Assembly (NCBI GenBank): GCA_977016875.1
Contig: CDRNST010000072.1
Coordinates: 2,914,001-2,978,000, forward strand
Reading direction: 5' to 3'
DNA: 64,000 nt
Source of the DNA: Pavona decussata
Taxonomy: Eukaryota
Below the pieces are notes generated by a model. The model ran no database searches. It had not been told where the DNA came from and worked only from the letters and a program-made list of their open reading frames with translations. Positions 42,057 through 61,959 of this stretch are shown here, piece by piece; positions within the stretch are counted from its first letter, which is position 1; each line of letters starts with the position of its first letter. Made by a program: the position numbers and the translations under genes.

Positions 42057-42546
42057 ATCGTTTTTTAATTTGAGTTGATTCAAGAGTAAACGCCCACATT
42101 TCATGTTAGAGAAAGCTAGGCTCTCAACGGATTTACAATTATCATGGAATTATCAAGATTATTAATTGGGACTCGTTTAGCTTTTTAAGATAGTTTATAC
42201 TGATTTGTTTATGTAATTGTTTCGCATTATCGTCGTAAAGAGAATAGTTCGTTTTTCAACCAAATTGATAGAGATCTGTTTCATTGTATTTTTGATTACG
42301 GTCGCTGTTAGCCAGGTCGTTGGTTATACATAATTGTGGTTGTGGTTTTGAGTTGGTTTCTTTTAAAATGTTGCAATAAATCGCCGTTTACTGTCAACTG
42401 TGTTTCTTTGCACGCTACTCAACCCGCATTTTCCTGAAGCAGGAGCCCATTACGCTGAGCGTCGTGTTATGGCGGTTTTTTTTTTCAGACCTATCTATTT
42501 TTAGATTGAAGTTCCGACAAATCCAGTCCCCTATGTGAGCCTTACT

Positions 42547-43010
42547 AGTAGTTATGTAGGACACTTTACGGCGCCGGTTAAAGTTTTACACAAATTTTGT
42601 ATGAAACTTTAACCCGAGCCAAAAAGTGTCCTCACACAAAGTTTTTGATAAAAAAGTATAAAAATTTAATACCCATAAGGTAAAGTCTCAATTCCTGATT
42701 CAGTCTTGACCACCATCCTTTTGTCATAACACATTGTGAAGTCTTTTTCCTGGTACCTGTTTTTGACCTGCTTTGTTTTGCTATCTCGTGTTATCATTTG
42801 TTCGTTGACTGTTGTTATCCGATTCTTTTGACCTTCGATTATTTGTCTCATTGTTTGTTGGTTAATATATTGACTGTTTTCATAATTAAGTGTAAAACCT
42901 TTAACTTTACATACTGTTTTTCCGTTACTTGTGCAATAACTGTAAGACTTTGGCCCGGTTCCACACCACTTTTCAATGTAATCTCCACCAAGCTCATCGG
43001 TAAGATCACC
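42547..43010 (+). repeat. Left terminal inverted repeat (464 bp)
   Basis: Reverse complement of 58789-59252; I found one mismatch (42751 versus 59048). Confidence 0.95.
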
Positions 43011-58788: not shown

Positions 58789-59252
58789 GGTGATCTTACC
58801 GATGAGCTTGGTGGAGATTACATTGAAAAGTGGTGTGGAACCGGGCCAAAGTCTTACAGTTATTGCACAAGTAACGGAAAAACAGTATGTAAAGTTAAAG
58901 GTTTTACACTTAATTATGAAAACAGTCAATATATTAACCAACAAACAATGAGACAAATAATCGAAGGTCAAAAGAATCGGATAACAACAGTCAACGAACA
59001 AATGATAACACGAGATAGCAAAACAAAGCAGGTCAAAAACAGGTACCCGGAAAAAGACTTCACAATGTGTTATGACAAAAGGATGGTGGTCAAGACTGAA
59101 TCAGGAATTGAGACTTTACCTTATGGGTATTAAATTTTTATACTTTTTTATCAAAAACTTTGTGTGAGGACACTTTTTGGCTCGGGTTAAAGTTTCATAC
59201 AAAATTTGTGTAAAACTTTAACCGGCGCCGTAAAGTGTCCTACATAACTACT
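58789..59252 (-). repeat. Right terminal inverted repeat (464 bp), including a copy of the polB 3' end
   Basis: Encodes GDLTDELGG...ETLPYGY*, identical to the left copy except Q>P. Confidence 0.95.
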
Positions 59253-61959
59253 CTTACTAACCAGTCTCAAGCTTTGCATGATTCTCATGTGAACCGGAAT
59301 TTACCGTGCGACTGCTCTGCCGGGGTCTCTTAAAGGCCAATCAGATTACAGGAAAAGAACAATAAATTTCAACCAAAGCCGATTGAACCAATCACGAGTA
59401 GACGGGAAAAAACAGTTAAAACCCCAAATTTTGGAATTATGCACTGTTCGTATCATACTGTGATCTGATTTGCCAGTCTTAAGTGACCCCGGTAATAGTA
59501 GTCGCACTTTCAATTTTCTCTGGAAATAGTATTTCCACCTCTATCTAAAAATAGACCGATCTGTGAAAACGCCGTGGCATAGGCTCGGTATAAGAGCTGT
59601 ACGCTCCAAGTAACAAGCTCCTTCCTGGAGTGCTTATCCCACCTCCGGGCAAATCCTCGGGCATTAGTATTTTTGAAAAGAATCTGACTAATGCCTGACG
59701 GCGGGAACAAACGAGATGTTCAAATTCCCCGCAGTACAGTTAAAAAGAATTTGATTTCTTCGTTTCTGGGCTTACCTTCATTTTAATGAAAACTATACTA
59801 ATTCATACAAACTGCTGTTTCGGATAAGTCCTATTTCTCAGTATTGTCGCAGTCACTATTCATTCTGTGGATCTGCCATCCCATTTATGTCCTCTTTGAA
59901 TAAAGCTAATTTACCGATGAACGTTTCAGTGAAAAGTTGTCAAAGCTACAGAGGCGTGGAGTGAAATCATGGGGGCATTGTCCAACACAAACACCCTGGG
60001 CGGACAATGTGACAAAATACCCCACTAATGCCCCGGGAGATGACCCTGAAGGAATTGACAGATGCGTTGGTAATTGATTTAATCTAGATTAGTTTATCGT
60101 GTCACCTTTTAAGCCAATCACCTTCCAAGCCTTGTTTCGTGGGACGGTGTAACATGTGAATTCTTTTATTTGTTTGTTTCTGATTGGACATCGAATGCAA
60201 TCTATTGTTCTTTCAGTCGGTGAATATGATGTCGCCGGCTGTTTCTCTTCTGCAGTTTTTTAAAAATCTTGTAAAAAGGTTCTAATTGCTGCTATTATCA
60301 AAAAGTAGTGAGATTTACGCCGTAGGTTTAGTATTTATATATTACACATTTAGACCTTGAGTATTTTAGAGCTAGCATTTGACTGCCGTGATGTTGACTG
60401 AATATAAGCAGATCATTCATCATTTGATATTATTACTGAGGATCGCGACCTTACAATCTAGGCACCGAAATATGGCACTAGAAGATTATTATTTGTCTAA
60501 AGAGCAGTTTCGAATTGAGTGTCGTGAAACCAAAACTAACGTTATTACTCTGGCCAATCGCAACAGATGTAAACAACAACAACAACAACAACAACAACAG
60601 CAAAACCAACCAGCTAATCATCTAACTAATACATCGACCTGGCGCCAAGCGTGGGAAAACGCGTGCGGCGAGAACACGATTAGTTTTGGTTTGGATTCCC
60701 ATTGGTTGTTAACCAATCACAGAGTGTAGTAATGCAAAATCAAAGCAAACGCGAAATTACTTTCGAGACTCAATTGAAAACCGCTCTATAGCGCCGCCAG
60801 TAGTTCATTAATTAGTCCATGGTCTAACGAGACACCAATATGGCCGACCCCTCGGATGTTTGATTTATAATTAATTCTTTAGTATATTCTTATTGTTATC
60901 ATCCCTCCCGGGTGTTTCGTTTATGACTGTCAACACGAGACTTAAACGTAGAACTGTTTTTCTTATTGAGTTCTATCTAAGCTTCTAGTTCTAGTGACAA
61001 CTGACAAGTCCTTGTGTCACGTGGTACGCGTGATCACCGGATGTGATCTCTCGTTACACCGGACACGCCTTCCAGGGATTTGATTTGCCTTTTTTGACGT
61101 TTTGTTTCCCATCCCGGGAGTTTTTGCACCCAATAAAATTAAACATAAACGCTTGGTTCTGTAAGAAAGTAAAAATATTTATTTCTATATTTTAGTATTA
61201 ACAAAAATAGCTACTGATTACACTGAACTTCTACTTCGCAAAACGCTTGAAAACCTTGAAAAATGTTTTACTGTTGGGTGAAAAAGGCCAACTTTAAGTG
61301 TTCCGAAAATTCCTCGAAGAGGAATAATATATATAATATATTATAATATTGTTGTACTTATATCCTTAATTATTTAATTTAGATTTGTAACTGTAATAAT
61401 TATTGTATTGAGCTGAAAAACCCACTTAGGGANNNNNNNNNNNNNNNNNNNNNNNNNNNNNNNNNNNNNNNNNNNNNNNNNNNNNNNNNNNNNNNNNNNN
61501 NNNNNNNNNNNNNNNNNNNNNNNNNNNNNNNNNNNNNNNNNNNNNNNNNNNNNNNNNNNNNNNNNNNNNNNNNNNNNNNNNNNNNNNNNNNNNNNNNNNN
61601 NNNNNNGGCGTGGCTAGGGGGGGCTTTGGCTTTAGCCTCCCCCATCCCCCCCTCCCCACTTTTGTGCTGTAAAAAAAAAAAACTAAAGTAGCAAAAACGA
61701 TGCAGAAGAAATCTAATTAGTTCATAACGGAACAAAAGTTACAATTACCATTAGCAAAGTCGACGAACTAGCAGACACAACAAGTAATCAACATATCCTG
61801 CGACGAAGCAAGACTATTACAGCTAGATATACTTTGAATCTATTGACCATTAATGACAGTTTACTGGTCAATGCTATTATATTGAGTAGCGTTTTAATCA
61901 ACCAAGCTTTGCTGCATATGCAAAGATGGAGTCTCTTTGGATCTTGTGTCTTATAGGGG

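Follow-up and report, generated by a model that had tools for sequence, protein, structure and literature searches.

Organization and boundaries of the element

The window, by which we mean the whole stretch of DNA analysed (64,000 nucleotides of Pavona decussata contig CDRNST010000072.1), contains a full-length Alpha-type Polinton (Maverick) provirus of 16,706 bp at positions 42547–59252. The element and its target site duplications (TSDs) comprise the following features, including two terminal inverted repeats (TIRs).

42541–42546, no strand: left TSD, CTTACT, present as a single copy at paralogous empty sites
42547–43010, plus: left TIR, 464 bp, containing a terminal hairpin (~42555–42636) and the 3' end of polB
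42666–46828, minus: protein-primed DNA polymerase B (PolB) of the Alpha/PF03175 class, with an N-terminal Rho_N-like domain and a Vsr-like insert; frameshifted near 43248
46908–47219, minus: 103-aa Rho_N-like ORF, open
47265–48233, minus: rve integrase with a C-terminal chromodomain; no Met before the first catalytic Asp; stop at 47511–47513
48182–49201, minus: PLA2X, with a parvovirus-like phospholipase A2 domain and two adenain-type cleavage motifs; open
49422–49856, minus: adenain-like cysteine protease, open; start presumed
49880–50703, minus: core protein V-like ORF, frameshifted in a lysine/A-tract; putative core protein
50774–52063, minus: major capsid ORF, 429 aa, identified from a fold model and structure matches
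52100–52510, minus: 136-aa basic ORF, putative core protein, open
52528–53286, minus: putative minor capsid protein (penton), with a nonsense codon at 53248–53250 (codon 13)
53292–54284, minus: 330-aa conserved ORF without a family match, open
54436–55080, plus: A32-like packaging ATPase, open
55093–57479, plus: fibre with phage tail-fibre-like repeats, frameshifted near 56950
57489–57983, plus: SLATT-like two-transmembrane protein, open
58789–59252, minus: right TIR, in which the 3' end of polB is repeated
59253–59258, no strand: right TSD, sequence CTTACT

Gene families were assigned from Pfam profiles (PF03175, rve, PLA2, C5 protease, A32 ATPase and tail-fibre domain), and the major capsid, A32 ATPase, C5 protease, PLA2, rve integrase, PF03175 polymerase and fibre genes named in an earlier, sequence-only reading of this DNA are all present. 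PolB matches PF03175 with an E value of 1e-48 and has the Exo and Pol motifs of a protein-primed PolB; its Vsr match is weak, and the Cys and His motifs sought for an N-terminal OTU domain lie at residues 310 and 411, as motifs only. The integrase matches PF00665 and has the DDE motifs of rve integrases, with the chromodomain lying behind a premature stop. A packaging ATPase (PF04665, above the cut-off) and a maturation protease are both encoded; the match of the protease to PF00770 (C5) is below the cut-off (E 0.004), and its H-D-C motifs are present. The model of the major capsid protein is a double jelly-roll (pLDDT 89; Foldseek E 3e-14) that matches the capsids of SGIV (an iridovirus), PBCV-1, mavirus and Sputnik; a single-sequence fold reached a pLDDT of only 29, and a PDB sequence search with the major capsid alignment gave no match. 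The minor capsid protein is tentatively assigned from its position and from viral look-alikes. The SLATT-like gene is replaced in some relatives by a variant with 31–34% identity.

By its predicted gene content, the element is an Alpha-type Polinton/adintovirus because a PF03175-class PolB and PLA2X are both present, which is the layout given for Alpha adintoviruses in the available part of Starrett et al. 2021 (PMC8502044). It shares with the viruses described there the PF03175 polymerase, rve integrase, adenain, packaging ATPase, hexon, penton, PLA2X and TIRs but differs in having five broken genes. Alpha-type Polintons are already known and common in stony corals according to the accessible portion of Stephens et al. 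2024 (PMC11131425). In keeping with the present results, it reports that scleractinian genomes contain numerous endogenous copies, with TIRs and the hallmark genes; a search of that paper by term gave nothing on polymerase classes, mosaicism or PLA2. The named PLA2X relatives come from stony corals, and scans of viral contigs found no relatives.

Both ends of the element start with AGTAGT, and the TIR arms have a single mismatch over 464 bp, at position 42751/59048; this arm length and the 6-bp TSD fall within the Polinton ranges of 100–1500 bp and 5–8 bp, respectively. The terminal hairpin of the left TIR has a z of −5.7. Look-alikes of the left flank are present at 11 other loci, four of which join both flanks over a single CTTACT; one of the four is the locus of a paralogous kinase ~100 kb away on this contig. 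Among the other seven, one differs by 1–2 letters, four have a small deletion there and two are uninformative. Because four paralogous loci carry a single CTTACT between joined flanks, the duplication is genuine. The element went into a small dispersed repeat of the host that lies 1.16 kb past the point (~41384) where the final exon of kinase gene 2 ends. Thus the perfect TSD, the AGTAGT termini, the TIRs with one visible mismatch and the location about 1.2 kb downstream of that gene, all claimed by the sequence-only reading, are confirmed. The interrupted repeat (42462–42546 and 59259–59622) has weak inverted ends; its left flank has at least 39 other matches, and it occurs without the virus at six kinase-paralogue loci.

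In one public run, a contig matches the left junction exactly over 91 nt, 30 of them on the element side, and this run may be the source of the assembly. Contigs that resemble the flank are also present in a coral-metagenome run, which fits a coral host. In a second public run, the same terminal 139 nt of the element are preceded by other letters. No exact empty allele was present among the matches listed from contigs of public runs, and the joints across the element in such contigs derive from paralogous host repeats. Contig depth in these runs is high over the integrase, PLA2X and fibre genes.

Elsewhere in the window are two paralogous protein kinase genes (16299–17816 and 37798–41384) with long coiled-coil repeat N termini, broken frames at 770–5337 that we take by their motifs to be a Bel/Pao-like retrotransposon, a minus-strand GIY-YIG endonuclease fragment at 34051–34746, presumably Penelope-like by the same kind of evidence, and, at 61950–64000, 11-bp degenerate repeats on either side of decayed frames, which we assume to be Crypton/DUF3504-like.

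Integrity and age of the copy

A complete virion module had been described for this element, but five of its genes are interrupted, including those for the minor capsid protein, core protein V and fibre. In pPolB, a frameshift near 43248 cuts motif C off from the rest of the protein, and 14 of 14 aligned relatives differ there; the possibility that the break is common to the nearest relative was rejected, the break of that relative being 60 bp away. The premature stop of the integrase (47511–47513) removes the chromodomain and is read through in 22/22 relatives. Core protein V loses its conserved hydrophobic tail by a frameshift in the A-tract near 49960–50000, the minor capsid nonsense codon is at a position where 21 of 22 relatives are open, and the fibre, frameshifted near 56950, is open in all 21 relatives compared. 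The replication, integration and virion genes are thus not all open, the copy is unable by itself to replicate, integrate or form a normal capsid, and its integrity was overstated in the first reading. Like this copy, 6/23 relatives are frameshifted in the A-tract where core V ends, and in five of them V enters the protease frame; the tract may be a mutation hotspot, may be misassembled or may act as a second slippery site.

The genome has 24 other loci whose capsids are at least 71% identical to that of this copy, and more distant matches number at least 70, a count based on the 98 candidates that were scored out of 377; a near-identical sibling is absent among the scored loci, the best long blocks being 92–94% identical. 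All ten genes tested are open in three of the 24 relatives, by a test that is blind to very early stops, and a looser count of open frames with window-derived references gives five of 24. Intact relatives therefore exist in this genome, and the earlier claim of a lineage able to form virions is supported in that the family encodes the virion genes, and fails for the copy itself. A second, more abundant Polinton family (at least 70 scored matches, 35–37% capsid identity) shares PLA2X (~85%), integrase (74–79%) and parts of the fibre with the family of this element and has polB at the opposite end in two of six sampled copies.

Some of the five breaks, as they appear in the assembly, may be assembly errors. 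That all of them are, and that the provirus is intact and very recent, we regard as very improbable. Three breaks are small indels, one of them within the A-tract where relatives shift too, and at least one gene is broken or absent in 21/24 relatives, as this explanation might suggest; however, the other two are nonsense substitutions missing from 22/22 and 21/22 relatives, the polB and fibre indels sit in runs of no more than two and four letters, respectively, and the number of nonsense codons is consistent with neutral decay at the level implied by the TIRs (p 0.19). The single TIR mismatch corresponds to ~0.11% decay per arm (95% CI 0.003–0.6%) and the two nonsense codons to ~0.27% (0.03–0.96%), estimates that are compatible, within wide limits, at ~0.1–0.3% per site. 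The TIRs make a weak clock, since in 22 copies their divergence does not follow the decay of the genes (rho 0.19, p 0.40). The boundaries and the low decay estimates bear out a full-length, young insertion, in which a Polinton copy would have entered the small host repeat and later decayed. The insertion itself is an ordinary young coral Polinton, dead on its own, and its value lies in the family, with a probable gag-pol-like route to integrase and a probable cassette of polymerase and termini, rather than in the insertion.

The overlap of PLA2X and integrase

The integrase lies in the −1 frame relative to PLA2X and overlaps its 3' end, and the first Met of the integrase comes after the aspartate of its WxxD motif, which we take to be the first catalytic residue by comparison with retroviral integrases. 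Gene callers truncate such integrases ahead of a catalytic residue. Among 31 copies examined in this genome, the integrase motif LADELH was found in 28, and in 26 of these the stretch from the upstream stop to the motif has no Met. The overlap contains two further features.

48227–48233, minus: slippery heptamer A_AAA_AAC, phased so that a −1 shift would lead from PLA2X to integrase
48137–48219, minus: predicted stimulatory stem with 10-bp arms (48219–48210 and 48146–48137), beginning 7 nt past the heptamer and closing a 63-nt loop

The arrangement is that of known −1 frameshift sites, an in-phase X_XXY_YYZ heptamer with a structure 5–9 nt downstream, here after a 7-nt spacer. In-phase A_AAA_AAC is present in 28/28 copies from this genome, which belong to two families with 35% identical capsids and are relatives rather than independent trials; the background within the element is 2.3% for A_AAA_AAC and 17% for any canonical heptamer. 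A metagenome set of 80 loci with integrases 47–79% identical left 29 that were scored, 48 being without the motif and three without upstream DNA. An in-phase heptamer is present in 24 of the 29, one of which uses G_GGA_AAC at the same place; Met is lacking in 24, and five have an upstream Met. A long PLA2X-like ORF is in the −1 relation at 13 metagenome loci and a long ORF in the +1 relation at one. Off-phase heptamers occur at 18/29 loci, with two phases pooled and mostly in the same A runs.

The 10-mer located 7 nt past the heptamer pairs with a second 10-mer within integrase codons, and the frameshift region of the window has a folding z of −3.75. At least nine of ten pairs form in 45 of 51 heptamer-bearing sequences (28/28 from this genome and 17/23 from metagenomes, the stem being missing in the other six), as compared with 5.5% of shuffled sequences. 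In an alignment of 28 selected rows, 95.7% of stem cells are paired (27–51% in slid controls), three stem pairs have two-sided, compensatory changes, and the covariation score exceeds those of 500/500 shuffles; two pair-count measures of the stem are not above shuffles (60 and 54 of 500). RNAalifold gave no structure on all 28 rows and recovered the same stem on the 25 rows left when three stemless ones were removed. The heptamer columns, in rows that were selected for the heptamer, are the most conserved (0.98 versus 0.65 upstream).

Programmed −1 frameshifting to give a PLA2X-integrase fusion is the best reading of these signals and is likely. Alternatively, the integrase might be translated from a spliced mRNA or a non-AUG start, the heptamer and stem being by-products of overlapping Lys and Arg codons. 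The host is eukaryotic and could splice Polinton transcripts, there is a GT after the 5' arm of the stem and an AG at the LADELH codons, and automated Stylophora gene models merge PLA2 and integrase in one protein; these models, however, are unreliable because the ATPase is fused into them as well. By-products of coding would not readily account for the two-sided changes in the stem, the use of different Arg codons at the stemless loci, the contrast in conservation between the heptamer and upstream columns or the spacer of 7 nt in most sequences, and we consider this alternative unlikely.

Under programmed frameshifting, most ribosomes would end at the PLA2X stop (339 aa), and a minority would slip at A_AAA_AAC after ~325 codons and then read ~320 integrase codons. 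Such a fusion would enter particles along with PLA2X, and the viral protease could trim it, the two adenain-type motifs in PLA2X being candidate sites. An integrase packaged and trimmed in this way would enter with the incoming genome at a low fixed stoichiometry. The conserved 130-nt signal thus predicts integrase within particles and bears on how polintoviruses make, ration and deliver the enzyme. Retroviral gag-pro and gag-pol genes use −1 frameshifts, as at the A_AAA_AAC site of MMTV. The arrangement here resembles gag-pol in its structural gene, slippery heptamer, short spacer, downstream stem and enzyme in the −1 frame; unlike retroviruses, this is a dsDNA virus, its upstream partner bears a phospholipase, and its stem closes a loop of 48–63 nt. 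No PLA2X-integrase fusion was found in the literature searched, as far as its texts were available, and supplements may list such sites; none is mentioned in the available part of PMC8502044. The only slippery sites found for adintoviruses in the accessible publications are those predicted for penton and hexon-adenain by Buck et al. 2024 (PMC11071296).

Polymerase classes and genome termini

Fifteen of the 24 relatives share the polymerase class of this element, eight carry an EndoVII-bearing polymerase, and one ends at a contig edge. No PF03175 match was found in the three EndoVII-bearing polymerases scanned of the eight, and the common ground of the two classes is limited to short patches of the catalytic part with 21–31% identity. 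The eight EndoVII-class relatives nonetheless have capsids 86–96% and integrases 92–96% identical to those of this copy and, in seven, perfect TSDs, so they are not assembly chimeras. The nearest capsid relatives of this copy are mostly of the EndoVII polymerase class, and the EndoVII class as one clade is rejected in MCP, ATPase and protease/V trees (AU p below 1e-33).

The class of the far-end terminus is that of the polymerase in 23/23 copies, by terminus motifs that were picked after inspection of the data; a nearest-neighbour assignment is concordant in 25/25. Within the Vsr class, the far terminus follows polB (Mantel r 0.81, p 0.0005) and not MCP (r −0.06). Terminal hairpins have z values of −2.0 to −7.5 in 14/14 Vsr-class copies, where they differ in sequence, as compared with −1.0 to +0.6 in 10/10 EndoVII-class copies. 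The far arms are up to 98.9% identical between classes, right up to the TIR, and one EndoVII-class copy has, just inside the far TIR, the inner half of a fossil, decapitated terminus of this element's type; together these indicate that the far end was overwritten by the polymerase-end terminus.

It is likely, from these comparisons, that the family exchanges polymerase genes together with both genome ends. Recombination in the 5' region of polB would replace the polymerase-end arm, and the new terminus would then be copied to the far end during strand-displacement replication by panhandle repair, a process known from adenovirus work. The termini might instead follow the polymerase through linkage and unbiased TIR homogenization, with no specificity between polymerase and origin. 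PolB ends within or beside the near TIR, to which it is physically linked, the TIR arms are near-identical in every case, the supported branches provide only three independent polymerase/terminus pairs (sign test p 0.25), and the available part of Jeong et al. 2023 (10.1101/2023.08.22.554363) describes conserved TIRs for the pPolB1 and pPolB2 elements of nematodes. Unbiased repair, however, should at times retain the old end, and no mismatch is seen in 23 copies; moreover, the terminus classes are structurally distinct, with hairpins in one and none in the other. We view homogenization without specificity as a possible but less convincing account. Since terminus and polymerase change together, the specificity of a polymerase for its origin becomes open to test.

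Taken together, the element is a full-length Alpha-type Polinton with five broken genes, from a family that likely makes its integrase as a minor −1 frameshift fusion to PLA2X and likely swaps its polymerase with the termini, a reading to which we assign a probability of about 0.78. The frameshift signal and the polymerase-terminus swaps are two unusual features of the family that are absent from the sequence-only reading. With less assurance, we lean to the wider proposal that, in PLA2X polintoviruses of corals and other marine hosts, the sole source of integrase would be a gag-pol-like −1 frameshift joining it to a membrane-active virion protein, so that the enzyme would be packaged and its amount limited in the retroviral manner. 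In the same proposal, the polymerase and both termini of these viruses would constitute an exchangeable replicon cassette with a class-specific origin structure. We infer frameshifting, packaging and origin specificity from sequence.

A literature search by title and abstract returned nothing pointing to termini that track polymerase class. In the nematode Polintons, as here, very distant polymerases are swapped between otherwise close elements in one genome, and Vsr and HNH inserts are present; the accessible text (10.1101/2023.08.22.554363) calls the TIRs highly conserved between classes, whereas in the present family a change of polymerase goes with a change at both ends, and one fossil terminus is left. 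The hybrids in the portion of PMC8502044 available combine an Alpha polymerase with Beta virion modules; here, a Beta-like polymerase accompanies a PLA2X module in eight relatives. Turnover of the replication module and TIRs on a retained capsid module is likewise proposed in the available parts of Barth et al. 2024 (PMC11296320) and 10.64898/2026.10.13.758929, but here it is among near relatives in one animal genome and the integrase is retained, at 92–98% identity, and not replaced.

A recent origin of the second polymerase in the abundant family with 35% capsid identity was rejected, as the polymerases form separate clades and are ~67% identical. The 5' region of polB (46400–46830), which includes the Rho_N-like domain and an 84-nt duplication (46480–46650), is 86–89% identical to that of an EndoVII-class relative, and the N-terminal leaders appear to have been shuffled between polymerase classes.
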